A DNA stretch of 64,000 nt from Bdellovibrionales bacterium (GCA_965205645.1 OZ242172.1:576122-640121); one strand, 5' to 3'; positions 4,145 to 57,439 are shown, counted from the stretch's first letter. Numbers and translations: made by a program. Notes: generated from the letters alone by a model not told the origin.

Positions 4145-4487
4145 AGAGTTGATCTCCTGGCTGTAACGGATGGTGTTTTAAACTGGATGCTTTAAATTCA
4201 AATACGGAATGCGTGTTAGAAAACAAAGGAGGATAGATGAGTTTCATTGCTGTGATTTGTTGAAGAACACGAGTAATTTTTAAAGCATGTGTGACAAAGA
4301 TCACGTCAATGGGAAATTTCATAAAGAAAGTGTGGATGCCTCCTCTGCATGGAATAATCCAAAGTGTATGAAATAAAGGAAAGTCTGTTTTTCCCAACAG
4401 ACCTTTTATACGTGCAGGTAGGCGACTAGCTGTTACAATTTTTTCAGCTAAAGTTTTCCCAGTTTTTTTATGGATAAGTTTTGACAT
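4131..4487 (-). CDS. DUF192-family small protein
   Basis: Pattern RIKGLLGKTDFP...GGIHTFFMKFPIDVIFV...VFEFKASSL...GDQL matches the usual DUF192 (COG1430) layout. Translationally coupled to the flanking genes. Confidence 0.55.
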   Translation of the reverse strand: MSKLIHKKTGKTLAEKIVTASRLPARIKGLLGKTDFPLFHTLWIIPCRGGIHTFFMKFPIDVIFVTHALKITRVLQQITAMKLIYPPLFSNTHSVFEFKASSLKHHPLQPGDQLYVDD

Positions 4488-5410
4488 TATCCTCCTCCAT
4501 AGAAGAATTGAAGGCTGATAGGTGCTAGAACAGCAATAAACACAGCGGGTAGAATGAATATAATCATGGGTAATAGCATTTTTTGTGAAGCTTTAGCGCC
4601 TTGTTCTTCTGCGCGAGTGAATCGTTCATGTCGCATTTGTTCTGATTTTGCTTTAAGAGTTTTGGAGATACTGGCTCCTGTTTCTTCAGAGTCAATAATT
4701 GTCATACAGAAACTGGAGACTTCATCTATATCTAATCGTTTAGCCATATTAGCAAGGGCATCTTTGCGGGAGCTACCTAGTTTAATATCTTTTTGTATCG
4801 TTAGAAATTCAGTCGCGAGAGCAGAGTCAGTGGCTTTTTCCGTAATTCTTTGAATAGAACCAAAAAAGTCCAAACCGGCTTCGGCACTCAGAGCTAGTAA
4901 ATCAATAAAAAAAGGTAAATCTCTAAGGACTTCACTATCTCTTTGTTTTTTTCGACTGGTACAGTACCAGTGTGGAAAATAAAATCCCACTGCACTAACT
5001 ACTATTGCTGCCCATAAAGGAAAGTTGAATTGCAAAGCGAAATTAATAATTAGAAATAAAATAGGGAAAAGCAGTCCCCACAGCAATTGCAGGCCAATAA
5101 ACTCATCGGTATTGATTTCTTTGCTTAGTCCAGCAGTAAGGATTTTATGTTCCACTGATTCACGGTACTTAGCGGACTTAATTCTTTTTACATGTTGTAA
5201 AGTTAAGTTGTGGACTAAAGGCCGGGATAGTTGAATTAATGGCATTTTAGAGGGGCTAGGTTCTTGGCCTTCTGCCCATGCAAGGGATTCTGAGTCAGTG
5301 TTTTTAGTAAACATCACTGTGCAGAACAGGTAAATAGATGTAGCTCCCAAGGCTAGACCGGAAAATAAAAAAATATAATCAAATGGCATATTATTCCTTT
5401 GTGGATTCAT
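4487..5410 (-). CDS. tadC: Type II secretion system F-family / TadC-like pilus assembly membrane protein
   Basis: N-terminal TM, central TM pair, T2SSF-type cytoplasmic domain (DLPFFIDLLALSAEAGLDFFGSIQRI...IQKDIKLGSSRKDALANMAKR) and C-terminal TM. Confidence 0.7.
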   Translation of the reverse strand: MNPQRNNMPFDYIFLFSGLALGATSIYLFCTVMFTKNTDSESLAWAEGQEPSPSKMPLIQLSRPLVHNLTLQHVKRIKSAKYRESVEHKILTAGLSKEINTDEFIGLQLLWGLLFPILFLIINFALQFNFPLWAAIVVSAVGFYFPHWYCTSRKKQRDSEVLRDLPFFIDLLALSAEAGLDFFGSIQRITEKATDSALATEFLTIQKDIKLGSSRKDALANMAKRLDIDEVSSFCMTIIDSEETGASISKTLKAKSEQMRHERFTRAEEQGAKASQKMLLPMIIFILPAVFIAVLAPISLQFFYGGG

Positions 5411-6709: not shown

Positions 6710-7372
6710 ATGGCATTTCATCCAGATGATATTTTAACAAAAGTTTTTACTCGCAAGGTTGTCGGTGGATTCAATCCATCAGAAGTCACTCATTTTTTAA
6801 AATCTATTGCAGAAGATGTAGACCAGCGGAATAAAGATAAACAAGCTTTAAGAGATAAGTTAAGTGAGATGGAGGTATTTGTTCGGGAGTATCGTGATCG
6901 GGAGGAGCTATTAAAGAGTACGATTTTATCTGTGCAGAAGATGGCGGATAAAATTAAGCAGGACGCAGAAAAAGAAGCGAGATTTATATTGGAGGATGCT
7001 CACCAAAAAGCGGATTTATTAATTGCGGATGCACGGGACTCGCTAAAGACGGCGTATCAGGATTTATCGGATTTACGTAGGATGCACATTCAGTTAAAAA
7101 ATGCGTTAAAGGCAGTATTACAGTCGCATCAGGATTTATTGGAGCAGGATCCGTTTCATTCTATTTTACCAACCTCATTAAGTGGTCAGAGGGCGGATAT
7201 ACCTCTGATGGAAAAAAAAATGATGGAATCTCTAGGTCAGGCGGCACAGATGTCTACACAAGCATTTAGTAAACATGGTGTGAAGAATGATAATGTTGGT
7301 ACAGTTGACTCGCAGCAAAATATTTCCTCCAAATCGAAGGCACAGCAAAAGCACTCTTCTTTGGAAATTTAA
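6710..7372 (+). CDS. divIVA: DivIVA-domain cell-division/polarity protein
   Basis: MAFHPDDILTKVFTRKVVGGFNPSEVTHFLKSIAEDV is the canonical DivIVA N-terminus, followed by coiled-coil sequence. Start moved to the internal ATG of ORF 6665..7372. Confidence 0.8.
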   Translation: MAFHPDDILTKVFTRKVVGGFNPSEVTHFLKSIAEDVDQRNKDKQALRDKLSEMEVFVREYRDREELLKSTILSVQKMADKIKQDAEKEARFILEDAHQKADLLIADARDSLKTAYQDLSDLRRMHIQLKNALKAVLQSHQDLLEQDPFHSILPTSLSGQRADIPLMEKKMMESLGQAAQMSTQAFSKHGVKNDNVGTVDSQQNISSKSKAQQKHSSLEI

Positions 7373-7410: not shown

Positions 7411-8169
7411 ATGAAAATATTAATTGGTAAGCATAATTTGCGACTTAGTAAAATTATTTTTTTATTAGGTATTTTATGGGGTTGTTCATCTCCGCAATCT
7501 TCTGTTGCGCCGGAAGAGACAGAGCAAGAAGATTCTGGTGTGTTTGGAGTTCAGACGATATGTCATCGGGATGAAGGTTGCACAGCTTCTTGTCACGAAT
7601 TATTTGTCGGAGATTCGGATCATGCAAACAAATGTATGGATCAGACGGTAGGGGATGTGAGGGCATTAAAAGTAGTATTGGCAGCGATGGAAAAAGGTTC
7701 TTGGTCTTCTATTAAACCGGATCAATTAGAGAGGGCTTTGAATTTTGATTCAGATCTTTGGCTTCCTTATGTGGACATTAACAAACCATGGAGCAGGGCT
7801 TTTTTAAAGCGGGTGGCGGAAGAACCTAAGATAGCGGAGTTACTAGACGATAATGAGGTTTTGCGGCGAGCTTTTATGTCTTTGGTGTTATTAGGTTCTC
7901 AGGACGATCAGATTTTAGGTGGAATGCGGGAATATGTGGATACAGATGAGAATCAGACTTTTCTTGGAGTGGCGGCATTAAATAAAAACGATAAAGCATT
8001 TGAAGAGGGGCATCGTTTGTTATCTGATGTTTGTCAGAAGAGGCAGTTATGCATTCAACGTGTGTATTGTGCCATTTACGAAGATATTGTGTTTACACGT
8101 TTGAACGATTTAAGTTTATCAGATGAAGTCACAGATAGTGGTCGTGTCTCAGTTGCTATTTGCAATTAA
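7411..8169 (+). CDS. Cys-rich secreted lipoprotein, paralog family member 1 of 8 (short form)
   Basis: Lipobox-like LLGILWG|C. CHRDEGCTASCHELF (C-x5-C-x3-C) motif and C-terminal CQKRQLCIQRVYC motif, both shared with the other members. Confidence 0.6.
   Translation: MKILIGKHNLRLSKIIFLLGILWGCSSPQSSVAPEETEQEDSGVFGVQTICHRDEGCTASCHELFVGDSDHANKCMDQTVGDVRALKVVLAAMEKGSWSSIKPDQLERALNFDSDLWLPYVDINKPWSRAFLKRVAEEPKIAELLDDNEVLRRAFMSLVLLGSQDDQILGGMREYVDTDENQTFLGVAALNKNDKAFEEGHRLLSDVCQKRQLCIQRVYCAIYEDIVFTRLNDLSLSDEVTDSGRVSVAICN
8147..8169 (+). repeat. Left copy of the 23-bp direct repeat bracketing the inserted cassette (also the 3' end of family member 1)
   Basis: tctcagttgctatttgcaattaa versus tctcagtcgctatttgcaattaa at 9553-9575 (one mismatch). 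Confidence 0.85.
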
Positions 8170-8581: not shown

Positions 8582-9490
8582 ATGCCCAGTTGGAATGACA
8601 TTTTAAAAGAAATACAAAAAGAAATACAAAAAGATTCTGACAAAAATCCTTTTCATACTGTCAGACAAAAATATATTGATAAGCTTTTTAAAAAACGTCA
8701 GAGAAATGTTATTACTTACTATTCTGGCTGGCTTCAAAAATCTAATATAAAAGGTATTGAAATAAACGATAATGATAAAAATGCTTTTATGGCAGTTATT
8801 TATCAATTAGATCGATCGAAAGGATTAGATTTAATACTTCATACTCCTGGCGGTGAAGTAGCTGCAACAGAATCCTTAATTGATTATTTGAGAGAAATGT
8901 TTGATTTAAACATTGAAGTGTTTGTTCCTCAGATTGCTATGTCAGCGGGAACAGTGGTTGCTTGTGCTTCCAAACTGATACATATGGGAAAACAATCTAA
9001 TTTAGGTCCCATTGACCCTCAAATTGGAGGGCTGCCAGCTAGTGCTATATTGGATGAATTTGAAAAAGCGGCGCGAGAGATTAAAGAGCAACCAGAAAAA
9101 ATTCCATTATGGCAAGTTATTGTCAGTAAATATCATCCCAGTCTTATATTATCTTGTGAAAACGCCATTGAATGGTCGAAGGAAATAGCAAAGAAATACT
9201 TAGAGACAGGGATGTTTTCTAAGGATGCAGATATAGATATTTCTAAAATAGTGAATCATCTTTCGGATCACAAAAAAATGAAAACTCATTTTAGACATAT
9301 TGGCCTTAAGGAAGCTCAAAAGATTGGCTTAAAGATTACTCCTCTTGAAGAAGATAATGAACTTCAAGATATAGTTTTAACAATTCATCATTCCTATATG
9401 CATACATTGAATAGCACTCCTGCCATTAAAATTGTAGAAAATCATATTGGAGTTGGCCAGCTCCAGAGTTTACCAGTAGCTTCTAAATAA
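8582..9490 (+). CDS. SDH-family (Clp/SppA-fold) serine protease
   Basis: LDLILHTPGGEVAATESL and IAMSAGTVVACASKLIHMGKQSNLGPIDPQIGG match the PF01972 serine dehydrogenase proteinase / ClpP-fold signature, with the Ser in MSAG. Confidence 0.75.
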   Translation: MPSWNDILKEIQKEIQKDSDKNPFHTVRQKYIDKLFKKRQRNVITYYSGWLQKSNIKGIEINDNDKNAFMAVIYQLDRSKGLDLILHTPGGEVAATESLIDYLREMFDLNIEVFVPQIAMSAGTVVACASKLIHMGKQSNLGPIDPQIGGLPASAILDEFEKAAREIKEQPEKIPLWQVIVSKYHPSLILSCENAIEWSKEIAKKYLETGMFSKDADIDISKIVNHLSDHKKMKTHFRHIGLKEAQKIGLKITPLEEDNELQDIVLTIHHSYMHTLNSTPAIKIVENHIGVGQLQSLPVASK

Positions 9491-9552: not shown

Positions 9553-9575
9553 TCTCAGTCGCTATTTGCAATTAA
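9553..9575 (+). repeat. Right copy of the 23-bp direct repeat bracketing the inserted cassette
   Basis: tctcagtcgctatttgcaattaa. It could also encode VAICN-stop like the left copy. Confidence 0.85.
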
Positions 9576-9580
9576 CGTAG

Positions 9581-9631
9581 TTTCTCAGGTAAAAATTTCT
9601 GTTCAAAGATTCAGACATATGTTTTGCCACC
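9581..9631 (+). repeat. Solo half of a B-repeat
   Basis: tttctcaggtaaaaatttctgttcaaagattcagacatatgttttgccacc matches the TCAAAAG-TCAGACATGCGTTTTG arm of the B family. Confidence 0.6.
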
Positions 9632-9688
9632 TTGCCATTGGGTCGGCGAGGACATTTATTTGTTAAAATGATTTACTAGTTTCTTCAG

Positions 9689-9788
9689 TTAAAAATCCAC
9701 CTCAAAAGTTCAGACATGCGTTTTGTTGTAAAGCGGACTTGCAGTCGCTTTGCAACAAAGCCGAACTCGTTTTGAGATGGATTTTTAA
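9689..9788. repeat. B-repeat hairpin element (100 bp)
   Basis: ttaaaaatccacctcaaaagttcagacatgcgttttgttgtaaagcggacttgcagtcgctttgcaacaaagccgaactcgttttgagatggatttttaa. The outer 19 nt are perfectly self-complementary. Confidence 0.85.
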
Positions 9789-9797
9789 TTAAAGAAA

Positions 9798-9875
9798 TTT
9801 ACATGATTTGTAAATATAATATGCGTGCAAGGAATCGCGGTGAAGTCACTCCCCCTTGGGGGGGCTAAGGTCTGG
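9798..9875 (+). repeat. A-repeat copy (short-core variant)
   Basis: tttacatgatttgtaaatataatatgcgtgcaaggaatcgcggtgaagtcactcccccttgggggggctaaggtctgg. Confidence 0.8.
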
Positions 9876-11121: not shown

Positions 11122-12294
11122 ATGGAAAAGGTAAAAAAGATGGAACAACAATTAAACAGTGATTTTAAAAAAATTAGACAGCCAACTACTTGGTTTTTTA
11201 TGGCTATGATTTTTATTTTTACTTTGCTAATAGGTATGGAGTTATTTGGTTGTTCGGGTCGTCCTGGTGCTTCTGGGGTATTTGATAATAATCAGAATCA
11301 ATTTTCTTCAGATGATAGTACGGAAAATTCCGGCATATTTGAAAGTGCTGATGGGCGATTAAATTCAGATGATTTGTGCTATAACAATGAATCGTGTGTG
11401 GAATTATGTAACTCTATGCTGAAAGATTTTTCCGATCAAAAGAGATGTTATTCTTATCAAGAAGTGGATGTGCAGGCGTTTAGGGATACTTATAACAATC
11501 TGGCTTTAGGTCAAAATTTAGGTGATGTAGACTCGGATGAAATGGAATCTTTTTTGGATTTTGGTGTGGAGATATGGCGGGACGCCATTACAGGTTTTGA
11601 GCGAGATTGGCAAAGTGGTTGTGAAGTAGGTGCAGATGAACGGCTAAGTGATTGCCAGGGTGATGATTATTATTTGCAACGTGGTTATACCCGGCAAGGT
11701 GCAGCAGCGGCGCTTAGTTGGATTGCCCGTAGTGATTGGCTCGCAAAACTATTGCTAGATTATGATAATGATTTTGTCGTTATAGACGCACTGGTTGCTG
11801 TTTTAATAGATCCTGATCTTCCTAAAAAATATATAAATTTAGATTCGCCTAATACAGAAGTGATTGAATCAATTAAAGTATTTCCTGATGAAGAGCAGTG
11901 TCGGTCATATGTTAATCCAACATCAGATAATGATCCAGCTGAACCTTTAACAGAAAATTTAGCATTTAATATTCCCTGTTTAGATCAGAATTTAAATTAT
12001 ATATTATTAGCTCGGAAATATGATAATGAAGAATCTATTTTGTTAGGTGATAGGTATTGTAGTTATCTGGGTGTAGATTGTACTTTAGAAACAGCTGAGA
12101 TTTTGTTTCAAGCCGCTCAAAATGAAGGCAGAGTATATTCTTTTATTTGTGATTTACTTAGAGATGCTGGACTGATCAGTAATTGTGGTAATGATGAATG
12201 CACAGCTTGTCAAAGTTTTCAGAGAATGCTTGGTAATCCTGTTTCTGCGTGTGAAGCTGATCCTATTACTGATCAGCAACCTTGTCTTCCTTAG
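11122..12294 (+). CDS. Cys-rich acidic secreted lipoprotein, paralog family member 3
   Basis: Lipobox LFG|C. CYNNESCVELCNSML, MESFLDFGVEIW and LSWIARSDW motifs, many further Cys. Start uncertain (several in-frame ATGs). Confidence 0.65.
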   Translation: MEKVKKMEQQLNSDFKKIRQPTTWFFMAMIFIFTLLIGMELFGCSGRPGASGVFDNNQNQFSSDDSTENSGIFESADGRLNSDDLCYNNESCVELCNSMLKDFSDQKRCYSYQEVDVQAFRDTYNNLALGQNLGDVDSDEMESFLDFGVEIWRDAITGFERDWQSGCEVGADERLSDCQGDDYYLQRGYTRQGAAAALSWIARSDWLAKLLLDYDNDFVVIDALVAVLIDPDLPKKYINLDSPNTEVIESIKVFPDEEQCRSYVNPTSDNDPAEPLTENLAFNIPCLDQNLNYILLARKYDNEESILLGDRYCSYLGVDCTLETAEILFQAAQNEGRVYSFICDLLRDAGLISNCGNDECTACQSFQRMLGNPVSACEADPITDQQPCLP

Positions 12295-12295
12295 T

Positions 12296-12332
12296 AAAAA
12301 ACCTTGTTTAAAAGTTCAGACATATGTTTTAC
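12296..12332 (+). repeat. Solo half of a B-repeat directly after the stop of family member 3
   Basis: aaaaaccttgtttaaaagttcagacatatgttttac. Confidence 0.55.
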
Positions 12333-12368
12333 TTCAGACATTTGTAAAAATGATTACAAAATTGTAAG

Positions 12369-12486
12369 TTTCTCTATTTAAAAACTCTACTCAAAACGAG
12401 TTCGGCTTTGGTGCAGAGCGACTGTAAGTCTGCTTTGCAACAAAACGCATGTCTGAGTTTTTGAGTAGAGTTTTTAAATAGAGAAA
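12369..12486. repeat. B-repeat hairpin element (118 bp)
   Basis: tttctctatttaaaaactctactcaaaa-cgagttcggctttggtgcagagcgactgtaagtctgctttgcaacaaaacgcatgtctgagt-ttttgagtagagtttttaaatagagaaa. The 28-nt outer arms are perfectly complementary. Confidence 0.9.
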
Positions 12487-12505
12487 TATACATCATAATT
12501 AGTGA

Positions 12506-12574
12506 AGTCGTGACAGGTGTGCAGCGGAGTTGCGGCGAAGTCACTCCCCCTTGGGGGGCGGGGCTTAGGTCTGG
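12506..12574 (+). repeat. A-repeat copy (short-core variant)
   Basis: agtcgtgacaggtgtgcagcggagttgcggcgaagtcactcccccttggggggcggggcttaggtctgg. Shares the trailing ggct(a/t)aggtctgg with the copy at 9798. Confidence 0.8.
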
Positions 12575-12770
12575 TAATTGGTGAAAAATCTAAGGAAATA
12601 TGTTTAAGAATCCGAATTTATATTAAGATAAAGATTGTGTCAGTAGACATCATCTGGAGAGATAACACAATAATAAACATTAAAAGTAATCATTGGACAT
12701 TAGTAAAAGCTGACAGAGTGATTAAGACATAATAAAGGATGAAAAAAAAATTAACGAAGGGGAATAGGCA

Positions 12771-13913
12771 ATGCGTGGAATTAAAGAAGTATGGAATTTC
12801 ATTTGTGGTGCAGATAAAAAACTTATTCAAAAAGTTTTTGGCATATTAGTCAGTGGTTTTATTTTAACGGCGATTGTGTCAGCGGGCTTTATGTCTTGCA
12901 CACCGAATTTTGATGTGGATTCTGGCAGTTCCAGGGATAGCAATAACAATAGTGATGACGACGATGATGACGAAGATGATGGAGAAAAGTGCCTAGGTCA
13001 CGAAACTTGTGAAAAAATTTGTGAAAAAATTTATTATGCAGGCAGAGATCAAGTGGATTGCCAGGAAGAAGGCAGGAACAAAGTTGGTCGTTTGGATGAA
13101 ATATATGATCTTTTAAAAACAGGCGATTCTAGAGATTTAGAGAAAATTTTCCCAGATGAAGATGGGGTAGAACTAGATGATTTGGAAGATTATTTAAATA
13201 TTGGTATTTCTGGTGTGGAGGATTTGATTGATGAGAATAGTAAGGGTGATGATTATTGGGATGACATAAATAAGTTGGGATCTGTTTTAAAATGGATTAT
13301 TGATGAAGAAGATGTAGCAAATGTGTTAAATGGGTTAGATGATAATGGAGGACATCGTATTTTAGAAGAGCTTCTTGATAGAATGGAGGTTACTAAAGAC
13401 GGCGATTGTATTAGTAAGAATAGCCTTGCTTGTGGTACTAGTCCAACTATTAATCACGTAAATCATTATGACTATGATAGTAATAGTGGCCAAATTGAAA
13501 TTTGTACTGATAATAGAGATCCAACATTAAAAGGATCTGTTGATCTAGTTAATGGCGCTGATATACAATTATATGATGCTTTATCTTGTGTATATAATGA
13601 CTTAAGGGCTAATGGAAAAGATCAAAATGTGTTTTCTTATGCTAGTGTAAAAAATAATAGCATTATTTTTAATATGGCTTATAATTTATTAAATGATATT
13701 TGTGAAAATGTAGATGATCGCGATCCTGATCATCAAAGAGCTTGTAGAAAAGCTTTACTTTGTTGGACAGGTGTTCAAAGTGAAGAAGGTGATGATCCAA
13801 ATGAAAATTTTTTTAGGGAGTATGTGAATGATCATAGAAATGATTTAGAAAAAGATAGCGGTGGTTCTGACTATAATCAATGTCAACCAAGACATTTTGC
13901 CGATTTCTTTTAA
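12771..13913 (+). CDS. Cys-rich acidic secreted lipoprotein, paralog family member 4
   Basis: FMS|C lipobox-like site, poly-Asp/Glu linker, CLGHETCEKICEKIY, LEDYLNIGISG, LKWIIDEEDV, CRKALLCW, C-terminal NQCQPRHFADFF. Closest paralog of member 5. Confidence 0.7.
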   Translation: MRGIKEVWNFICGADKKLIQKVFGILVSGFILTAIVSAGFMSCTPNFDVDSGSSRDSNNNSDDDDDDEDDGEKCLGHETCEKICEKIYYAGRDQVDCQEEGRNKVGRLDEIYDLLKTGDSRDLEKIFPDEDGVELDDLEDYLNIGISGVEDLIDENSKGDDYWDDINKLGSVLKWIIDEEDVANVLNGLDDNGGHRILEELLDRMEVTKDGDCISKNSLACGTSPTINHVNHYDYDSNSGQIEICTDNRDPTLKGSVDLVNGADIQLYDALSCVYNDLRANGKDQNVFSYASVKNNSIIFNMAYNLLNDICENVDDRDPDHQRACRKALLCWTGVQSEEGDDPNENFFREYVNDHRNDLEKDSGGSDYNQCQPRHFADFF

Positions 13914-14360: not shown

Positions 14361-14512
14361 CAGTCGTGACATGCGTGCAAGGATTCACAGCGGCCGGCGA
14401 CTCGCCGCAGACATTTACTTGTAAACTTAATTAGCAAAGTTGTGACATGCGTGCAAAGAACTCGCGGCGAAAATGTCACCGGCAACTCGCCGGCCACTTT
14501 GAAGGGGGTGGA
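14361..14512 (+). repeat. Two tandem A-repeat copies (variant with a CCGGCGACTCGCCGG-type hairpin)
   Basis: cagtcgtgacatgcgtgcaaggattcacagcggccggcgactcgccg... then tttacttgtaaac...gtgacatgcgtgcaaagaactcgcggcgaaaatgtcaccggcaactcgccggccactttgaagggggtgg. Confidence 0.75.
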
Positions 14513-15128
14513 ATGGATTTTGCTAGAAGAGCTTGCAGGATTGAAAAGTGTATTCATTCACAAGCAAGAGGGCCTTCAGGAAGAGGATTTTAAATTCTTT
14601 TTTTCTAAGATTCCTGCTGAATCCAGAAAAATTATGCTAAATTATGGTTTGAAGATAATAGATACTCAGGATTCAAAGGTACGAAAAGCTTATAAAGGTC
14701 ATCAATTAAGAGGTCGTGGTGTTATAAAGCTATTATCTGAGATATGGAGTATAAAAAGACCTGCTCCGTCTAAAGTAAAGGAAATTTTTCACGATTTTGC
14801 CGATATACTGAAAAAGCTGAAAGGAAAACAAAGAAAGGACACAAGTCTAAGGATACTGGAATACTTAATTGATAATACGGGCTTAGATTTAAGGACATGG
14901 AAGAAAGCAGAGAAGTTGATTATAGAAGAGGGAATTTTAACCAGAGGAGGTGTTATGGACATAAGAGAACATATTAAAGAAAAAGGCCGTTGGGAAGGAA
15001 GACAGGAACGAAACAAGGAAGTTATTTTAAATATGCTAAAAGAGAAGGCAGATATTTCCTTTATTTCCAAAATTACAGGTTTGTCTGAGAAAGAAATAAA
15101 GAAACTAAAAAACGGTTTTTCATTATAA
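14442..15128 (+). pseudogene. Rpn/YhgA-like recombination-promoting nuclease (putative transposase), C-terminal fragment only
   Basis: The C-terminus GRWEGRQERNKEVILNMLKEKADISFISKITGLSEKEIKKLKN resembles the tail characteristic of Rpn-family proteins. No PD-(D/E)XK core is visible, and the first ~24 codons are read from an A-repeat copy. Confidence 0.4.
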
Positions 15129-15440: not shown

Positions 15441-15497
15441 CAGCTCATTCAGTGAAAATCACTCAATCTTATGACATACATCAAAAGGGATGTGGAG

Positions 15498-16658
15498 ATG
15501 ACTCAAAAGAAAAATTCTGATGCATTAATAAAGCCAGTTTTTAGTCATTTAACATTTGTCATCACATTGTTTCTACAATCAACCTTTATTAGCTTGTTAT
15601 TAGCACACCCTACATTCGCCCGTTCATCCATGACAGACCGGCCGATCATTGCTGTGGCAACCAATATCGATAGAGAGAGAAAAGGTGTGAATAATGAAAA
15701 AAAATGTATGGGTCACAAAACTTGTGAGATGTGTGAAAAAATTTATGGTGCGGACAATGATAAAATAGCTTGTCAAAAAGAGAGCCTTAACAAAGTAAAT
15801 CATTTGAATAAAATATATGCTTTTTTAAAAGATGGAGATTATGAGGATTGGGATAAATTTTTCCTGGATGAAGATGAAGTGAATCTAAAATATCTAAAAG
15901 ATTACTTAAATATTGGCGATTCCGGTATAGAAAATCTTATTAAGAATCATTGGAGTGAAGATCAACTGATAAAATTCTTACAATTGATTATTGATAAAAT
16001 ACAGGTAGCGGAAATTTTATATAACTTAGCTGGAGGAAAATATCTTTTAAAAGAAATACTTCTAGCAATAAGAAATAAAACCGATCAATGTATTGGAAAT
16101 AACACTCTTAATGATTGTAATGATTCACCACACGGACATTATGGCAGAACTGGTTATGGTGTAGATTATAGTTTAGACGATGACACCGTTAATATTTGTA
16201 CTGAGGATAAAAACCCCAGTTGGTCATATACATTGGATCATCTTTTTCCATTTCCCAAAGAATTCATTTGGAAGAAAAGGAGTTTTACTTTTTTAGATGA
16301 TGATAACACGTCATTATATGACGCTTTATCTTGTTTCTCATTAATAGATAAAAGTAGCTTTTCAATTACACATTACAATGTATTTTCTTATGCTAGTATG
16401 AAAGAAAATGATTTTATTTTTAATATGGCTTATGATTTATTAAATGATACTTGTGAAGATTTTGATACTGATGAGAACGATTATAAACAACTCTGCAAAA
16501 AAGTTTCGTTTTGTTGGATTCATGAAGTAGATGAGAAACAAGGAGAGAGGAGTTTTAAATATCTTGTTGAGTTTGACTATGATGATGGTTTAGAAGGGGA
16601 TAGCGGTGGTTCTAACTATAATCAATGTGCACCAAGACATTTTGCCGAATTCTTTTAA
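15498..16658 (+). CDS. Chimeric paralog family member 5: PstS-derived leader/signal peptide fused to the Cys-rich family domain
   Basis: N-terminus MTQKKNSDAL...LLLAHPTFARSSMTDRPIIAVA is homologous at DNA and protein level to the PstS N-terminus MTQKKRSNLL...LLLATSTLAYSSMTDMPLVAAS. The rest carries CMGHKTCEMCEKIY, LKDYLNIGDSG, CKKVSFCW and NQCAPRHFAEFF. Confidence 0.75.
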   Translation: MTQKKNSDALIKPVFSHLTFVITLFLQSTFISLLLAHPTFARSSMTDRPIIAVATNIDRERKGVNNEKKCMGHKTCEMCEKIYGADNDKIACQKESLNKVNHLNKIYAFLKDGDYEDWDKFFLDEDEVNLKYLKDYLNIGDSGIENLIKNHWSEDQLIKFLQLIIDKIQVAEILYNLAGGKYLLKEILLAIRNKTDQCIGNNTLNDCNDSPHGHYGRTGYGVDYSLDDDTVNICTEDKNPSWSYTLDHLFPFPKEFIWKKRSFTFLDDDNTSLYDALSCFSLIDKSSFSITHYNVFSYASMKENDFIFNMAYDLLNDTCEDFDTDENDYKQLCKKVSFCWIHEVDEKQGERSFKYLVEFDYDDGLEGDSGGSNYNQCAPRHFAEFF

Positions 16659-20674: not shown

Positions 20675-21277
20675 ATGGATGTTGAAAAAAAAGATATACT
20701 CGTGCGCATGCTGACTACACCTAATCCTTATGCTTTAAAATTTGTTTTAAACGTGCCTCTAAAAAACATCGGTCGCGCATCTTTCTACAGTAAACAAGAA
20801 ACCACTCATCTACCCTTATTCCATTCTCTGTTTGATATTAAAGGCATAAAACAAATCTATGTGTTTCAAAATCAAATAACCATTACACATGAGGGAGCCC
20901 TTGGTGAAGAAGATATGGAAAAACAAGTAACAGCTGTGATCGGTACCCGATTGCCCATTCATGATCCAAACTTTATATCCCCAGAGGAAGAACAACAAAA
21001 CTCTACCCCTGCCAATAAAATAAAAACCGCAAAAGAAAAAACACCAGAGATGCTAAAAATAGAAGCCATCTTAGATCGCACCGTCCGACCCGGATTAAGA
21101 GCGGATGGAGGAGATATGGAAGTGCTTTCTGTTAAACAAAACGAAGTACACATTGCCTACCAAGGAGCTTGTAGCGGATGCCCCAGCGCATTTATGGGTA
21201 CACTAGAAGCTGTGGAAAGTATCCTACGACAAGAAACTGGTTGCGATACACTAAAAGTTATTCCCATAGATTCATAA
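20675..21277 (+). CDS. NFU-type Fe-S cluster scaffold/carrier (Nfu_N plus NifU C-terminal domain)
   Basis: N-terminal TPNPYALKFVLN (Nfu_N-like) and C-terminal RPGLRADGGDMEVL...GACSGCPSAFMGTL with the CxxC motif. Confidence 0.8.
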   Translation: MDVEKKDILVRMLTTPNPYALKFVLNVPLKNIGRASFYSKQETTHLPLFHSLFDIKGIKQIYVFQNQITITHEGALGEEDMEKQVTAVIGTRLPIHDPNFISPEEEQQNSTPANKIKTAKEKTPEMLKIEAILDRTVRPGLRADGGDMEVLSVKQNEVHIAYQGACSGCPSAFMGTLEAVESILRQETGCDTLKVIPIDS

Positions 21278-21333
21278 ATATTTTTTTTATAAGTTTTTTT
21301 AAATTAAAAATAGTTTTAGTGATGATACAATCA

Positions 21334-22545
21334 TTAAGCTCCATCTAAAATATTTTTTGCCTTTCGGACGGCATGAACCAATAACTGAATGTCCTCTTCA
21401 TTATTGTAAATAGAAAAAGATGCTCGCACCACACCAGATGGCAAACCATAACGTTTCATCAAAGGTAAACAACAATGATGCCCAGCTCGTACCGCCGCAC
21501 CTGCTTGCGAAATCAACTGACCCAAATCACTACAATGCAAACCGTCTATTATAAAAGATAAAATATTTACCCGTGAAGATGACCGCCCAATAATACGCAA
21601 ACCCTCTATACTCTTTAACTCTGTCTCTGCATAATGCAATAAAGCGGTAGATTTACTTTTTGTTTCCTCCAAAGAACAATTTTGATTGAGAAATTCTAAT
21701 ACCGCACCCAAAGCTAATACCGCACCAATCGCCGGCGTGCCCGCTTCAAAACGATGCGGTACGTCCGCCCATACCGCACTTAACTCATCCACATCCGATA
21801 CCATGCCGCCACCTAACTGATACGGCTGTATATTTTGCATCACCTCTTCACGCGCATAAAGTACCCCCACTCCCTCTGGTGCAAATAACTTATGCCCGGA
21901 AAAGACCAAACAATCACAACCGATTTTTTGCACATCCACCGGCTCCACCGTCATTGCCTGCGCAGCATCCACTACTGTAAGCACTCCACGCTTACGCGCC
22001 CACGCGACTAACTTCTCCACAGGATTGCACGTGCCTAATACATTAGAATAATATACAAAAGAAAATATCTTTGTCCGATCGCTCACTAAATTGTCTAACT
22101 CAGATAATACTAATTCACCCACATCATCTACTGGTAAAAATTTTAACCGTAAATTCCGCCGCTTGGCTAAAGCCTGCCAAGGTAATAAATTAGAATGATG
22201 CTCCATCTGCGTTAGTAAAATCTCGTCCCCCTCCTTTAAAGAATCTCCCAAACACGTCGCTAAAAAGTTAATACCCTCCGTAGCACTCTTTGTAAAAATA
22301 ACTTCCTCTACCTTCGCCGCACTAATCCATTTCCGTACTAGATCCCGTACCCGCTCATACCGAGTAGTTAATTGCGTACTTAAATAATGATCTCCACGAT
22401 GCACATTCGATACCTGCTGTTCATACAATTGCTTTAAAGTGTCCGGTACACACTGAAGCTTTAAAGACGTCGCGGCACTATCTAAGTACACCTGACTCTT
22501 CTGCTTCAAAAATTCCACCTGAGGAAAATGTTTCCGAAAATCCAT
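21334..22545 (-). CDS. sufS: Cysteine desulfurase, SufS type
   Basis: PLP lysine motif SGHKLFAPEGVGVLY and catalytic-Cys motif RAGHHCCLPL. Adjacent to sufD. Confidence 0.9.
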   Translation of the reverse strand: MDFRKHFPQVEFLKQKSQVYLDSAATSLKLQCVPDTLKQLYEQQVSNVHRGDHYLSTQLTTRYERVRDLVRKWISAAKVEEVIFTKSATEGINFLATCLGDSLKEGDEILLTQMEHHSNLLPWQALAKRRNLRLKFLPVDDVGELVLSELDNLVSDRTKIFSFVYYSNVLGTCNPVEKLVAWARKRGVLTVVDAAQAMTVEPVDVQKIGCDCLVFSGHKLFAPEGVGVLYAREEVMQNIQPYQLGGGMVSDVDELSAVWADVPHRFEAGTPAIGAVLALGAVLEFLNQNCSLEETKSKSTALLHYAETELKSIEGLRIIGRSSSRVNILSFIIDGLHCSDLGQLISQAGAAVRAGHHCCLPLMKRYGLPSGVVRASFSIYNNEEDIQLLVHAVRKAKNILDGA

Positions 22546-22728
22546 GTTTTTACTTCCCGTGTTTTTACTTCCCGTATTTTTACTTCCCGTTGCTTCGTGC
22601 TGCTGCAGACTTTGATCTCTAATTACATTTTTACTTCCCGTTGCTTCGTGCTGCTACATGCCCGGATTTCTAATCATGTTTTTACTTCCCGTTGCTTCGT
22701 GCTGCTACATACCCGGATCTCTAATTAT
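22546..22728. repeat. Tandem array between sufD and sufS: 15-bp unit x2 followed by a 51-bp unit x3
   Basis: Units begin (g/a)tttttacttcccgt at 22546, 22561, 22576, 22627 and 22678. The three long units continue tgcttcgtgctgct(g/a)ca... On the gene strand each unit ends ACGGGAAGTAAAAA(C/T), and the last is followed directly by the sufS ATG. Confidence 0.9.
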
Positions 22729-24146
22729 GTGACTTGTGCTTTTTTCACTTCATTCGCTAAATTTAATAATACGCTTTTATTGCGATGAATCATCTGATTT
22801 AAATGCTCCAAGCAACTATCCGCTGGAAACTGATGTAAAACATCCTTTATATAAGCAAATATCAAAAGCTCCCAAGCAGACTTCATGTCCAATCCACGAG
22901 TTTGTAAATAAAATATTTCGTTCGGATCAAAATTTCCCACCGCAGAACCATGCTGCGCCTGCACCTCGCTGCAATCAATCGCTAATTCCGGTTGGATGCA
23001 AGAGTGCGCACGATCACTTAATAATAAATTCTTGGCCGACTGACTGCAATCCACACCCTTTGCCCAAGATTCAACGTGTACCCGACCATGAAAAATACCC
23101 TTGGATTCATCATTCAATATCCCACGGCAAAATTGACGAGAATAACCCCCTGGCTTTAAATGATGCACATTAAACCGATGATCACTCTGATTCTTATTCT
23201 TTAAAATAGATAAACCTAATAATGTACTACGAGCTTTTTCCCCAACATGCACCACATCCGCCCTGTCCCTGGAAAACCGAGAACCTAAGCTAAAATGCAA
23301 ACGATCTATACTTGATTCTTTCTCCATCTCACTAATCGATTGATTAAAATAACAAGAAGAGCCACTGCCTTGCTCCACCCGAATCCATCGTAAAGCCGAC
23401 TGCTCAGAGTGATACACATTGGATACCGTATTCACTACTGCCTGTCCGTAATGAGAAATGTTCTCCACTAAAGTGAGCCGAGCTCCCTTACCCATAAAAA
23501 TAAAATTCCACCCCCCTAAGGGGGTTACTTTCGCCGCGGCTTCATTTACGTTATTGTCACTATCTTGCAAATCATGTTTACCCAGTGTCTCTGCCGACTC
23601 GGCGGCAAATACAGAATGAATGTGCAAAGCCTTAGAAGACTCATACCCATCCGGTATAAATAAAATATACCCACTTGGAAAAGCCCCAGCTAAATGAAAT
23701 AAACCATCTCCATTTCCAGCTACTTTTTTTTCTCCACGAAAACAATCCAATAACCAAGACCAACACGGAAAATCAGCATTCAACTGATCCCAAGTGCACC
23801 AACGCAAACCATCATCAATAGACGCTTCCACTAATTGATCATTATGAAAATGCAAACGATCTACATTTGGAAAATCAGCAATTAACTCTTCATTAATACT
23901 GTGCCGATCACTTACATTATTGCGCTCGGCATTCTGAAAAATGCTACGTAAAATATTCTGCACATAAGTAAACTGCCACCACTTGTCCGAACCCGACGGA
24001 AATCCCTTCTTTAAAAATTGAGCAAAATGCTTGTCCCGCATTTCACCCAATACCCGCCGCGAGTCCTCGGACGATAAGCCAAGCCATCCTTGCCGCTCCT
24101 GCTCAAATTCCTTTTTTAAAAATTCTATCCATCTGTCATCTGTCAT
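22725..24146 (-). CDS. sufD: Fe-S cluster assembly protein SufD (carries an in-frame A-repeat insertion)
   Basis: SufB/SufD C-terminal signature ...AQHGSAVGNFDPNEIFYLQTRGLDMKSAWELLIFAYI. Internal GKHDLQDSDNNVNEAAAKVTPLGG is encoded by the repeat at 23508-23583. Confidence 0.8.
   Translation of the reverse strand: MTDDRWIEFLKKEFEQERQGWLGLSSEDSRRVLGEMRDKHFAQFLKKGFPSGSDKWWQFTYVQNILRSIFQNAERNNVSDRHSINEELIADFPNVDRLHFHNDQLVEASIDDGLRWCTWDQLNADFPCWSWLLDCFRGEKKVAGNGDGLFHLAGAFPSGYILFIPDGYESSKALHIHSVFAAESAETLGKHDLQDSDNNVNEAAAKVTPLGGWNFIFMGKGARLTLVENISHYGQAVVNTVSNVYHSEQSALRWIRVEQGSGSSCYFNQSISEMEKESSIDRLHFSLGSRFSRDRADVVHVGEKARSTLLGLSILKNKNQSDHRFNVHHLKPGGYSRQFCRGILNDESKGIFHGRVHVESWAKGVDCSQSAKNLLLSDRAHSCIQPELAIDCSEVQAQHGSAVGNFDPNEIFYLQTRGLDMKSAWELLIFAYIKDVLHQFPADSCLEHLNQMIHRNKSVLLNLANEVKKAQVT
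23508..23583 (-). repeat. A-repeat copy (long-core form) inserted in frame in sufD
   Basis: ccacccccctaagggggttactttcgccgcggcttcatttacgttattgtcactatcttgcaaatcatgtttaccc. Confidence 0.9.
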
Positions 24147-25844: not shown

Positions 25845-27581
25845 TTAAGAACATTCTAATAAGCGATAAAAATCTGATTGGATTTTTTTTAGCTCTTTGT
25901 CAGATCGGCCGCCAAAACGAAAAGTAAACATGCTCTGTGTATTGGAAAGACGTGCCAGACCCCAAGCTTTCCCCGGAAAACATACCCGCACACCATCTAC
26001 TAAACATAACTGCGCTTCAGAATATTTCGCATAATGATCTTTGACTCGATTCAAAAGTTTGTGTGCCCGTGCTATGTCATTAACCGCTATACGTATCTCA
26101 TTCGTATGAACTCCAATGTTAGTAGGCAGTATTTTATCTAATAACTCTTCTACACGATACACACCACTCTCACATAAAATCCGTAACAAACGTAAAGTTG
26201 CATATACACCATCATCTAAAAAATAACCTTCATCACAAAAAAAGTAATGTCCGCTAAACTCACCACCGAATATCGCCCCTAATGCCAATGTTCGCCGACG
26301 AATTAAACTATGCCCCGACCCCCCAAGGGGGAGTGGTTTCGCCGCGGCTTCATTTACGTTATTGTCACGTCTTTGCTTCTCAAGGGGGAGTGGTTTCGCC
26401 GCGGCTTCATTTACGTTATTGTCACTATTTTGCAAATCATGTTTACCAAGTGCCAACGCAGATTTCTGCGTTTCTAAAAAATCAAAGAACCATGGGGCGC
26501 ATTTTACATCTGCGACAATAACACCGGCATCCTTATTCCGTTTCCATATATCAGAAATAAAAATCGCCATTAGCTCATCTCCATATAGCACCCTACCGGA
26601 TTCACTGATCACGACTAAACGATCCCCATCCCCATCCAAAGCCACTCCAAACTTTGCTCCACAGCTTCTTACCTTCTGACGTAAATCATTTAAATTTTCA
26701 TCTAAGGAAGGATCTGGATGATGATTCGGAAAACGTCCGTCCGGATCTGCATATAACCATTCAGCATTTAAACCTAACTCCTTAAAAACTGCTTGTGCCA
26801 CCGGCCCCGCTGCTCCATTTCCGCAATCCACTACAATGCTTCCCTGATCCTTCCACATTTTCCCTAACTGAGAAAATTTCTTTTTCATTAACTGAACATA
26901 AAAAGATATCACTGTATTATCTAAACTTTTGACTGACTTCTTCTCACGATTGATATTTGTTAAATGTCCACTGTCCGATACACAATGCTTGTCAGATAAA
27001 GATGTGGATTTTGTCTTTGCTAACAAAGAATCATCCGTAGATAATTGAAGGATAATATCTTTTAACTCTTGCAACTTCTCATCACATAAAGTTTCTTCAT
27101 ATACAGAAAATTTAAAGCCGTTAAAGTCAGCTGGGTTATGACTTGCCGTCACCATCACAGAAGCTGCGGTATCAGGAAAAAAATGGGAAGCAACAAAACA
27201 AACCGGAGTGGATACTAAACCTAAAAATTGTATCGGTGCTTGACCGGCAGTGAGTCCCTCTATTAAAGCATTTGTTACGTCTGGACTGCTTAAGCGACTG
27301 TCATGTCCCACTGCTACAAAGCTTAAAGACATAGGTGTGTCTAACAGTTTATCTTTTTTACTACTATGAAATGCCTTTTTGTCTTTTGTGATACTACGTT
27401 CACTGTTATTCCTAATGTTTGTGCGATATGAGATAAACTTAGCAAAAGCTATCCCCAAGTATCGCACGAAATCTAAATCAAAATCTTTTCCATATATTCC
27501 ACGAATATCATTTTTTCTAAAAATATCCGGATTCCATTTCATGTGCTTCAACCTAATATCCATCTCATACTCATTATGCAC
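25845..27581 (-). CDS. Phosphomannomutase/phosphoglucomutase (carries 1.5 in-frame A-repeat copies)
   Basis: Active-site TASHNPADFNGFKF, Mg site ALDGDGDRLVV, GHSLIRR sugar loop. The insertion ALGKHDLQNSDNNVNEAAAKPLPLEKQRRDNNVNEAAAKPLPLGG lies directly before GHS. Confidence 0.85.
   Translation of the reverse strand: MHNEYEMDIRLKHMKWNPDIFRKNDIRGIYGKDFDLDFVRYLGIAFAKFISYRTNIRNNSERSITKDKKAFHSSKKDKLLDTPMSLSFVAVGHDSRLSSPDVTNALIEGLTAGQAPIQFLGLVSTPVCFVASHFFPDTAASVMVTASHNPADFNGFKFSVYEETLCDEKLQELKDIILQLSTDDSLLAKTKSTSLSDKHCVSDSGHLTNINREKKSVKSLDNTVISFYVQLMKKKFSQLGKMWKDQGSIVVDCGNGAAGPVAQAVFKELGLNAEWLYADPDGRFPNHHPDPSLDENLNDLRQKVRSCGAKFGVALDGDGDRLVVISESGRVLYGDELMAIFISDIWKRNKDAGVIVADVKCAPWFFDFLETQKSALALGKHDLQNSDNNVNEAAAKPLPLEKQRRDNNVNEAAAKPLPLGGSGHSLIRRRTLALGAIFGGEFSGHYFFCDEGYFLDDGVYATLRLLRILCESGVYRVEELLDKILPTNIGVHTNEIRIAVNDIARAHKLLNRVKDHYAKYSEAQLCLVDGVRVCFPGKAWGLARLSNTQSMFTFRFGGRSDKELKKIQSDFYRLLECS
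26319..26447 (-). repeat. A-repeat, one truncated plus one full long-core copy, in frame in the phosphomannomutase gene
   Basis: ccccccaagggggagtggtttcgccgcggcttcatttacgttattgtcac, a 12-nt joint, then caagggggagtggtttcgccgcggcttcatttacgttattgtcactattttgcaaatcatgtttacc. Confidence 0.9.
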
Positions 27582-27602: not shown

Positions 27603-27708
27603 CTCCCAAAGAGAGTGACTTTCGCCGTCCGCGAGTTGCGACCCCCCAAGGGGGAGTGGTTTCGCCGCGATTCCTTCGTACTCATGTCACTATCTTGTAA
27701 ATGATATG
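27603..27708 (-). repeat. Two adjacent A-repeat copies (one partial), intergenic
   Basis: ctcccaaagagagtgactttcgccgtccgcgagttgcg then accccccaagggggagtggtttcgccgcgattccttcgtactcatgtcactatcttgtaaatgatatg. Confidence 0.8.
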
Positions 27709-27710
27709 GG

Positions 27711-27828
27711 TTTCTCCACTTAAAAATCTTATTCAAAACGAGTTTGGCTTTGAAGCAGAGCGACTGAAAGCTTGCTCTGCGGCAAAACGCATGTTTGAGC
27801 TTTTGAATAAGATTTTTAAGTGGAGAAA
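27711..27828. repeat. B-repeat hairpin element (118 bp)
   Basis: tttctccacttaaaaatcttattcaaaa-...core...-ttttgaataagatttttaagtggagaaa. Same core as 12369, different but self-complementary arms. Confidence 0.9.
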
Positions 27829-33224: not shown

Positions 33225-33237
33225 AGAGGAGGATATA

Positions 33238-33840
33238 ATGAGAGATACTATTCAGTGCAGAGTATTTTACTATCTAAAAACCATGGTTTTTTTGTTTGCT
33301 TTATTTCCAATGATTAGTTTCGCATCACCTTTAGAGAATGTATGGGATACATTGTTTCCAACTACTAGAGCAATCTCAAGAAGTGAAGTTCAGAACCTTT
33401 TACAAAATTCTTCTGAAAAAAGTATAATGCATATTCAAACCTATAAAGGATGCGAACCAGCCTTTGTAACTCTTGGAACAAAAGTATGGTTGAGCATGAC
33501 GGCACAAAAGACGGAAAAAAAGACCTGTTCTGTTGCTGTTCATCCAGGCAATAAAATATCCGTTAGTTTTAGCAATAAAACTGTTCTTGTGGCACCAATG
33601 AGCAGTAGAGCGGTCGTTGGTGATATAAAATATAACCTAGCCATTGGTGAGATAGATGGACACAATGTTTTAATGGTTGCATATGATGAAAATGGTACAA
33701 TCTCTTATGCAATATATACTGTTTATGATTTAAATGACAATGTAGTAGATTCTTATCTACAAGATGAATGGGATACATGGAAAGATTCTATTAGATATTG
33801 TGTTATTGCACCTGTATATCAACAATCAATGTGTGATTAG
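33238..33840 (+). CDS. Small secreted hypothetical protein, tandem duplicate copy 1
   Basis: Signal peptide MVFLFALFPMISFA|SP, Cys-containing ~180-aa mature part. Near-identical to the next gene. Confidence 0.6.
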   Translation: MRDTIQCRVFYYLKTMVFLFALFPMISFASPLENVWDTLFPTTRAISRSEVQNLLQNSSEKSIMHIQTYKGCEPAFVTLGTKVWLSMTAQKTEKKTCSVAVHPGNKISVSFSNKTVLVAPMSSRAVVGDIKYNLAIGEIDGHNVLMVAYDENGTISYAIYTVYDLNDNVVDSYLQDEWDTWKDSIRYCVIAPVYQQSMCD

Positions 33841-33882
33841 TATTCCAATAAATAGTTTCAATTCCATTCAAAGAGTAGTGTA

Positions 33883-34497: not shown

Positions 34498-34616
34498 TAT
34501 TCCAATAAATAGTTTCAATTCCATTCATAGAAAATCTATTTTTCCTATCTATTGAATTTTCTGTTTATAACAAGAGCAATTTGAGTTCAACATTCAAATA
34601 TGCTATGACTTCTAAA

Positions 34617-41612: not shown

Positions 41613-41645
41613 TATATTGGTAAGTATTATTGATGCGTCTCTTAG

Positions 41646-41686
41646 ATTTAAATATTCTGCTCAAAAGCTCAGACATGCGTTTTGCC
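41646..41686 (+). repeat. Half B-repeat, left of the A copy
   Basis: gatttaaatattctgctcaaaagctcagacatgcgttttgcc. Confidence 0.7.
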
Positions 41687-41752
41687 CCCCAAGGGGGAGT
41701 GACTTCGCCGCGGCTGCATTTACGTTATTGTCACAGCTTTGCATATTTTGTG
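41685..41752 (-). repeat. A-repeat copy (long-core form), intergenic, flanked by two half B-repeats
   Basis: ccccccaagggggagtgacttcgccgcggctgcatttacgttattgtcacagctttgcatattttgtg. Confidence 0.85.
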
Positions 41753-41770
41753 ATTGTTTCTTAAGGGGGA

Positions 41771-41807
41771 ATCCTGCTCAAAAGTTCAAACATATGTTTT
41801 ATCCCCC
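41771..41807 (+). repeat. Half B-repeat, right of the A copy, same orientation as the left half
   Basis: atcctgctcaaaagttcaaacatatgttttatccccc. Confidence 0.7.
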
Positions 41808-54803: not shown

Positions 54804-54821
54804 TCGTGTACTCGCTTTTTA

Positions 54822-57141: not shown

Positions 57142-57149
57142 ATTATTCT

Positions 57150-57266
57150 CATAGGATTAAATATCCTGCTCAAAAGCTCAAACATGCGTTTTGCCCGCAG
57201 AGCAGACTTAACAGTCGCTCTGCGTCCAAAGCCGAACTCGTTTTGAGCAGAATATTTAATCCTATG
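57150..57266. repeat. B-repeat hairpin element (117 bp)
   Basis: cataggattaaatatcctgctcaaaagctcaaacatgcgttttgcccgcagagcagacttaacagtcgctctgcgtccaaagccgaactcgttttgagcagaatatttaatcctatg. Confidence 0.9.
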
Positions 57267-57439
57267 AAATCAATAAGCATTAATATGAAATAATCTCTAA
57301 GGAAAACAATTGTTAATACAAGTATCTATGTCTGTGTGATTTTTAAACGAGGAAGATAAGGGTATATTTAAAAACAGGCTACAAGGGCAGGAGACATAGC
57401 GTATTGAGAAACTAGAACTATCTTGCTAGACTTTTTGCT

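Follow-up and report, generated by a model that had tools for sequence, protein, structure and literature searches.

A mosaic palindromic repeat with a near-invariant asymmetric core and covarying outer arms in a clade of uncultured Bdellovibrionota

The window analysed in this study is a 64,000-nucleotide stretch of the genome of a Bdellovibrionales bacterium (GCA_965205645.1, OZ242172.1:576122-640121) with a GC content of about 37%. It contains four full copies and four half copies of a palindromic repeat, here called the B-repeat or simply B. The parts of the focal copy, the other copies in the window and the A-type repeat beside the focal copy are as follows:

12369..12486, + strand: full B-repeat (focal copy), 118 nt, made up of left arm, X box, inner hairpin, Y box and right arm; nhmmer score 119 bits, MFE -61.8 kcal/mol
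12369..12396, + strand: left outer arm of the focal copy, 28 nt, TTTCTCTATTTAAAAACTCTACTCAAAA; perfect complement of 12459-12486
12393..12410, + strand: X box of the focal copy, AAAACGAGTTCGGCTTTG; near-invariant in 32 aligned copies from 11 genomes
12411..12440, + strand: inner variable hairpin (hp) of the focal copy; the stem covaries among copies, and the apex is an insertion site for other elements in relatives
12441..12462, + strand: Y box of the focal copy, CAAAACGCATGTCTGAG, with a T run; near-invariant, the sole variation being C/T at the two pyrimidines preceding GAG
12459..12486, + strand: right outer arm of the focal copy; reverse complement of the left arm
27711..27828, + strand: full B-repeat between pdxA and the phosphoglucomutase gene, antisense to both; six arm differences from the focal copy
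9680..9797, - strand: full B-repeat with the core in the opposite orientation; three arm mismatches
57149..57267, - strand: full B-repeat in a divergent intergenic region; one arm mismatch
9581..9629, - strand: half copy (arm and Y box only), 50 nt upstream of the 9680 copy; part of a composite in the order half-B, linker, B, A
12285..12334, - strand: half copy (arm and Y box) overlapping the 3' end of ORF 11122-12294; part of a composite of the same kind as that at 9581
41638..41687, - strand: half copy (arm and Y box) directly fused to an A-type repeat
41755..41804, - strand: half copy (arm and Y box), degenerate
12487..12560, + strand: A-type repeat adjoining the focal B

The four full copies named in an initial annotation of this DNA are all where it had placed them, with the limits given above once their arms are included. 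The X-box pattern CTCAAAACGAGTTYGGCTTTG has exactly four matches in the window, which are the full copies, and none is expected (100 shuffles); the Y-box pattern picks up the four half copies as well. A search of all 64 kb for perfect hairpins with a stem of 14 bp or more and a loop of up to 160 nt found only the copies at 12369, 27711 and 57149. The predicted folds of the four full copies are very stable, at about -50 to -70 kcal/mol, and reach -80 kcal/mol in relatives. The full copies other than the focal one also adjoin A-type repeats (9798-9863, 27642-27710 and 57076-57148), and the junction is the same in all four cases.

The arms of the 12369 and 27711 copies, 28 nt each and perfectly self-complementary within either copy, differ from one another at positions 7, 9, 17, 18, 19 and 22. 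All six differences are transitions and all are compensated. The annotation had counted five; it was right that every difference is compensated and that both 28-nt stems stay perfect. At the focal copy, weaker complementarity extends outward from the arms to 12363/12492. The copies had also been described as occupying intergenic, terminator-like positions, and here only the first adjective can be kept: they are intergenic, but one is sense to its neighbours, two are antisense and one lies in a divergent promoter region, and a promoter and terminator scan found nothing inside B above the shuffled background.

We compared 64 non-redundant copies, drawn both from the window and from 11 Bdellovibrionales MAGs related to it (12 genomes in all). 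An X-box scan of one genome per species gave at least 113 loci. Among the matches listed, nhmmer recognised the whole element only in MAGs labelled Bdellovibrionales, Bdellovibrionaceae, Oligoflexia or Bdellovibrionia, and the remaining loci of the X-box scan were chance 18-mer matches. A scan of viral contigs gave four chance 18-mer matches and no B element, and a metagenome scan with a 390-aa neighbouring protein found no relatives. The PdxA encoded in the window is 54-59% identical to its best hits past the closest relative, of which the named ones are "Bdellovibrionales bacterium" MAGs (57%), and 46% identical to the PdxA of B. bacteriovorus; no record matched it exactly. As far as the matches listed extend, B is confined to a clade of uncultured, small-genome Bdellovibrionota.

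The core of the element is asymmetric and about 65 nt long (62-70 nt), with the X box AAAACGAGTTCGGCTTTG followed by the short hairpin and then by the Y box, (G)CAAAACGCATGTYYGAGCTTTT. Both boxes are near-invariant in the 32 aligned copies, though orthologous proteins of the 11 genomes are just 55-69% identical. The hp stem covaries, with pairs 49-61, 50-60 and 52-57 changed on both sides; this result was obtained with RNAalifold, the MAFFT alignment of the inner hairpin being structurally inconsistent. There may also be a middle helix, in which variation is limited to C/T opposite G (G-C to G.U). Some B copies carry extra small hairpins at the hp apex. Small hairpin modules of the GATTCCCGCCTTCGCGGGAATGAC type occupy this position in some copies and also form short arrays beside B fragments (L012:935-1042, L083:1035-1139, L003:2179-2268, L044:5400-5480 and L043:3556-3640).

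Inverted outer arms of 19-39 bp are present in 62 of the 64 non-redundant copies, and their sequences vary both among genomes and among subfamilies inside one genome. The two arms of one copy are nearly always equal in length, while length varies over the whole of this range among copies. Over the 64 copies, 1441 arm pairs are Watson-Crick (96% of arm positions) and 61 are mismatched; a further 26 nucleotides are bulged. Of the stems, 26 are perfect. A formal count found changes on both sides in 19 of 22 outer pairs, with 92% of cells paired. The arm covariation score was 0.599, compared with 0.170 for shuffled arms (sd 0.012, 0/500) and 0.09-0.22 for slid partner columns. A copy's own arms gave pairing scores of 16-31, whereas a left arm combined with the right arm of another copy from the same genome gave 1-9; cross-copy pairing within a genome is far lower than own pairing in all but one young family. 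The covariation is genuine, and the finding is statistically solid and lineage-specific. The proposal that arm differences are compensated and a long stem preserved, made from the window alone, therefore extends to the 64-copy set, and with the exception of one young family the arms do not gather uncompensated mismatches at the rate of neutral decay.

The stems also have recurrent irregularities. The position lying 4 nt from the core is not Watson-Crick in 26 of 62 copies, which come from four genomes, and a bulge is retained in 16 of 16 JANQSP copies. The JAPPIY copies have just the inner 7 nt of the arm in common. Mismatches of the G.T and A.C kinds stand at 23:9 in one count and 28:18 in another, but since these counts are not independent the lean towards G.T carries little weight.

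Comparison of related genomes revealed rapid turnover of the element. All four B sites of the window are without B at the orthologous site in the closest available relative, although none of these comparisons is a clean filled-versus-empty pair, as each polymorphic site differs also in other modules or genes. Strain L115, whose flanks at the 57149 site are 95-97% identical, has a second A-type unit and a 311-aa ORF there in place of B. In contig L121, from the same sample, other gene cassettes occupy the 9680 and 12369 sites, and its 21 kb contain no B. At the 27711 site, the pdxA-pgm spacer of relative L114 is 45 nt long, against about 400 nt in the window, and is without B. Two JANQSX loci have B in intergenic regions whose window orthologues (21277-21334 and 54803-54822) have none. 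Gain and loss of B are rapid, and the intergenic sites that it shares with A-type repeats are strain-variable hot spots.

The arms belong to the element and not to its surroundings. L035 and L045 have a common 29-nt arm immediately outside which the sequences diverge, and in a five-copy JANQSP subfamily the flanks likewise diverge right at the arm end. No target-site duplication was found at the arm ends of the window copies or of those in relatives. B thus carries its own arms when spreading, and an origin of each arm pair by inverted duplication of local flanking DNA, which the annotation had named as a finding that would refute it, is at odds with the finding of the same arm with different flanks.

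Elements of this kind can be nested in or interrupted by one another. At L032, a B with 20-bp arms replaces exactly the hp of an outer, oppositely oriented B, and at L116 another B, together with an A unit, separates the Y box of one B from its X box. The full copy at L122 is followed by an array of units, each consisting of a partial X box, an arm and an A repeat, and its left arm pairs perfectly with the arm of the second unit and not with that of the nearest. The apex of B is a preferred landing site for further elements. Given this nesting and interruption, the half copies of the window are best read as halves of interrupted elements. The composites at 9581-9863 and 12285-12560 have the same order (half-B, linker, B, A) with the core flipped, and L122 has this composite too, located upstream of its orthologue of ORF 12771-13913; there the core is likewise flipped compared with the window. 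A core in opposite orientations between homologous flanks is consistent both with inversion of the spacer and with independent insertion in either orientation.

The sites that carry the repeats are hot spots at which accessory genes turn over, and in relatives they hold Fic, AbiE, Abi_alpha and DUF1016 genes. In the window, a 23-nt direct repeat, TCTCAGTYGCTATTTGCAATTAA, at 8147-8169 (the 3' end of ORF 7411-8169) and 9553-9575 bounds a 1.4-kb segment with an SDH-type protease gene (8582-9490) and an A-type unit. In a 97% identical strain (L121:8925-9865 and 12358-13856) an NYN-domain gene replaces this segment, and a different SDH-protease gene occupies the place of the 12285-12560 repeat composite. 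A (GTTCTATC)n microsatellite of about 25 units adjoins a B composite at L116:19575-19760, and a leader of the form GTTCTATC...ATTATTATTTATTA also precedes the B copy at L116:18285. The 228-aa ORF at 14442-15128 has multiple paralogues that adjoin B copies in OZ241921 and CBDETO.

A-type repeats (about 70-96 nt, for example GTGACAATAACGTAAATGCAGCCGCGGCGAAAGTAACCCCCTCTGGGGG) also occur inside long ORFs, which remain open:

26319-26452: A-type repeat in the phosphoglucomutase-like ORF 25845-27581
40602-40793: A-type repeat in the XerC/D-like integrase ORF 40323-41612, as two tandem 96-nt copies between its two domains
23512-23587: A-type repeat in the SufB/D-like ORF 22725-24146

Such in-frame insertion recalls the Rickettsia palindromic elements found inside genes. 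The window has several further repeats. Three tandem 51-nt repeats at 22577-22727 lie just upstream of the SufB/D-like ORF, and ORF 62345-63646 contains a tandem array of about 20 units of 15 nt (5 codons) at 63172-63486, the length of which differs between the window and L115 (multiple offset BLAST matches). Two paralogous gene pairs, tandem or nearby and neither with Pfam domains, were also observed: 33236-33840 with 33881-34497 (91-93% identical) and 12771-13913 with 15471-16658 (70-89% identical).

Pfam searches of 20 ORFs near the repeats yielded no transposase, autonomous partner or parent insertion sequence. The only recombinase, and the only tyrosine recombinase of the window, is the XerC/D-like gene, 30 kb from the focal copy. 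The RAYT (Y1 HUH) domain was absent from the 20 ORFs scanned, which come from 64 kb of a 1.56-Mb genome and from 8-kb pieces of relatives. As these ORFs include no mobilising enzyme, the case for mobility is entirely a comparative one.

B has points in common with several known kinds of bacterial repeat. Classical bacterial MITEs such as Correia/NEMIS and ERIC are about 100-150 bp long with terminal inverted repeats, are intergenic and found in either orientation, and form hairpins that may affect flanking transcripts. B is like them in size, terminal inverted repeats, intergenic location, use of either orientation and hairpin potential, and like them it displays insertion polymorphism between related genomes. 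The terminal repeats of MITEs, however, are their conserved part and are flanked by target-site duplications, while in B the arms are the least conserved part, no flanking duplication is present and no parent insertion sequence was found. The bacterial interspersed mosaic elements (BIMEs) of enterobacteria resemble B in being mosaics: B, half-B, linker and A modules occur in a fixed relative order and in arrays at intergenic sites. The difference from BIMEs is that the modules are unrelated in sequence and that the hairpin of B is much longer than a REP/PU unit. B and integron attC sites are alike in being imperfect palindromes (about 60-140 bp), in folding as single strands in which some bases are extrahelical, in conserving structure more than sequence and in adjoining strain-variable accessory genes. 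An attC site has conserved outer R''/R' boxes (RYYYAAC/GTTRRRY) and a variable apex; B has no R''/R' ends and occurs in either orientation, and no IntI gene was seen.

Further parallels are found in the REPINs described by Bertels and Rainey (2011, PMC3116915), which are doublets of REP sequences that form a hairpin and are mobilised by RAYT transposases. Like B, REPINs are short, non-coding, intergenic and high-copy, and form a long hairpin with two-sided compensatory changes; they too occur as singlets, as remnants comparable to our half copies and in ordered clusters, and persist within a lineage (PMC3116915). The layout is different. A REPIN has a conserved REP at both ends, mutually inverted, around a variable spacer with compensating changes (PMC3116915), whereas the X and Y boxes of B are central and are not mutually inverted. 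In B both the outer arms and the innermost hairpin are variable, and neither a GTAG/CGTC head nor a RAYT was seen. In behaviour B comes closest to REPINs, MITEs and BIMEs. Since it lacks defining features of each, and attC-type end boxes as well, we regard it as a new family with an unusual layout and not as a member of any named family.

The manner in which the arms stay perfect was approached through minimum-spanning-tree contrasts within genomes, which are roughly independent. These gave 34 compensated and 15 one-sided differences. Eleven of the 34 compensated contrasts involve transversions, for which there is no wobble intermediate. Copies with cores only 1-2 of 66 nt apart can be separated by 5-6 compensated pairs in the arms. 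Pairwise arm differences in the young OZ241921 family, on the other hand, comprise 0 compensated and 60 one-sided changes, which means that correction in place is not rapid. The mismatch and the bulge retained near the core indicate that some structure-specific constraint acts as well, since indiscriminate homogenising should erase both.

A second family in OZ241921.1, with an unrelated core, is built in the same way as B: a conserved 32-nt core, GGTGAGTGTCCAAGGTATTCCGTCACGAACAA, lies between perfect arms of 14-22 bp that vary among copies, single compensated changes included. Its loci are the following:

L028:831-904, 4436-4511 and 6771-6846: second-family copies, OZ241921.1
L009:7064-7140: second-family copy, OZ241921.1
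L042:3248-3323: second-family copy, OZ241921.1
L102:4267-4340: second-family copy, OZ241921.1
L113:1577-1652 and 4431-4506: second-family copies, OZ241921.1

The GGTGAGTGTCCAAGGTATTCCGTCACGAACAA core is seen as both reverse complements among these loci, but because the arms are perfect palindromes the sequence by itself gives no orientation relative to the context.

Inverted repeats that are imperfect are known to be made perfect by template switching, which can also turn the loop around and lengthen the stem (PMC5941160, PMC8794818, PMC8604942). The process predicts features like those of B, namely perfected arms, multi-base compensated changes and stem extension, and also an inverted spacer, with which the two core orientations would agree. 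By this analogy, the compensated changes, the opposite core orientations and the second family would represent known signatures of template switching between inverted repeats. Template switching is a general mutational process acting on any inverted repeat, whereas B is a specific multi-copy element with a structured spacer of 62-70 nt and a retained mismatch.

We favour, at roughly even confidence, the view that B is a non-coding, non-autonomous palindrome of the MITE/REPIN/BIME kind whose arms are produced mainly by templated re-copying at the DNA level, with an additional filter on hairpin formation. The arms would be free to drift, and one would repeatedly be re-copied from the other, either by template switching during replication or by gene conversion between the inverted arms. 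Copies that pair badly would probably be filtered out as well, through a requirement for hairpin or cruciform extrusion in propagation. The X and Y boxes presumably serve for recognition by a putative protein, which could be a transposase, a recombinase or a host factor.

The two processes combined in this reading could also be separated, and selection might do all the work. B would then spread much as REPINs do, as a single-stranded DNA hairpin mobilised by an enzyme specific to that structure, for instance a RAYT or an IS200-type HUH transposase, and independent mutations would be filtered for pairing with no templated copying. Compensatory changes are common in the REPIN hairpin (PMC3116915). 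That the mismatch and the bulge beside the core persist in a stem that otherwise covaries is what a specific recognised structure would lead one to expect, the G.T-compatible middle helix and G.T-leaning arms suggest that one strand is functional, and the young family displays uncompensated decay alone. Other properties are harder to reconcile with selection acting on independent mutations. Arm sequence changes at about the rate of the flanks and much more rapidly than the core, and still mismatched intermediates are very few; the share of transversions among the compensated contrasts (11/34) and the shifting of arm lengths in step on both sides also tell against it. The conserved sequence of B is central while that of REP elements is terminal, and no RAYT or Y1 gene was seen in the small parts of the genomes that were searched. 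Pure selection of this kind and templated copying coupled to propagation fit the data alike; of the two we favour templated copying with a hairpin filter, and consider selection alone a possible but doubtful explanation.

A more specific version of templated copying can be imagined, in which B and the second family propagate through a fold-back hairpin. A putative enzyme would act on the X and Y boxes, and the outer arm would be synthesised using the other arm as template, sometimes into the former flank. We put this forward tentatively, with little more than a minor share of our confidence. If true, it would be a self-templating form of transposition not described for bacterial repeats. It would explain the perfect but fast-diverging arms and their variable but matched lengths, as well as the fall of conservation with distance from the core and the irregularities kept beside the core.

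The covariation could also be thought to mark a structured RNA, such as an sRNA, a cis-regulatory hairpin or an RNase III substrate, with the helix under selection. This reading draws on the strong covariation of both arms and inner hairpin, on the very stable predicted folds, and on X and Y boxes that stay invariant between genomes with 55-69% protein identity. In addition, the one-sided C/T variation opposite G keeps pairs on the X-to-Y strand only. This variation, together with the G.T lean, weakly fits a strand-specific single-stranded form, which could be single-stranded DNA as well as RNA. The arms, however, are nearly all Watson-Crick and contain little G.U, which is not typical of an RNA helix. 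With respect to flanking genes the copies show no preferred orientation (10 sense, 17 antisense, 7 convergent and 9 divergent). On the complete OZ241921 chromosome, no two-replichore orientation pattern was obvious by eye. The Rfam search that the annotation had proposed matched B to no family at the gathering threshold; at E<=10 it gave just plant miRNA-precursor models, far below threshold, which marks B as a generic long hairpin. The only Rfam matches of the window are a class A RNase P RNA at 34616-34950 (+) and a tRNA gene at 35453-35526 (-).

Two further functional candidates were rejected. Compared by eye with the sigma-54 consensus, the Y box is missing the -12 GC and its GG is not conserved. 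The arms as "guides" to other loci were dismissed because their matches in the window are limited to their own partner arm and one half copy.

The annotation had left open whether the long stem reflected an RNA or cruciform on the one hand or palindrome homogenisation on the other. The evidence favours a DNA-level reading over a functional RNA stem. It includes the lack of orientation preference and of Rfam, promoter or terminator signals, the loss or replacement of the element between strains 95-97% identical, and the occurrence of interrupted, nested, halved and arrayed copies. It further includes the two orientations of the core within homologous contexts and arms that are almost purely Watson-Crick with G.U not clearly above A.C. 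We consider a structured RNA unlikely.

According to another explanation, only the core is mobile, and it either enters the centre of pre-existing palindromes or makes an inverted duplication of the flank on entry, so that no selection or correction is needed. The high variability of arm length (19-39 bp) and of outer sequence could be understood in this way, as could the restriction of the common part of the JAPPIY arms to the inner 7 nt; elements do land in hairpin apexes, and weaker complementarity often runs past the arm end. Against it, identical or homologous arms recur at unrelated loci with different flanks, half copies have an arm, and the arms of one genome share a common descent, the differences among them being compensated point changes. 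Core-less arm palindromes, the "empty targets" that such insertion implies, were found neither in the window nor in the Bdellovibrionales loci with full copies (about 0.4 Mb). We rejected target-derived arms as decidedly improbable on account of the recurring arms at unrelated loci, the arm-bearing half copies and the zero count of core-less palindromes. An inverton, in which the arms would be inverted repeats of a site-specific invertase and the core would flip as a switch, could accommodate both core orientations between homologous flanks but is highly implausible, as the invertible segment would be merely 62-70 bp, no promoter-like sequence lies in the core and no invertase gene beside any copy, 26 OZ241921 copies are in a single orientation relative to their flanks, and recombinase sites are expected to be conserved whereas the arms are the variable part.

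To return to the reading we prefer, the covariation most likely reports that the arms of a selfish mosaic repeat evolve in concert at the DNA level, and not a functional RNA helix. B is a well-defined new repeat family for a poorly known, uncultured lineage, with about four full copies per 64 kb here. Its layout reverses that of the textbook MITE or REPIN, having an invariant asymmetric centre and hypervariable, perfectly paired ends. It provides a natural multi-copy system in which structure selection and templated DNA copying can be compared as sources of "compensatory" stem evolution. As B would pass a covariation test without having to be RNA, this question bears on all RNA structure calls based on covariation. 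The repeats mark strain-variable hot spots of accessory genes, and they are therefore useful markers of genome plasticity in these symbiont-like bacteria.
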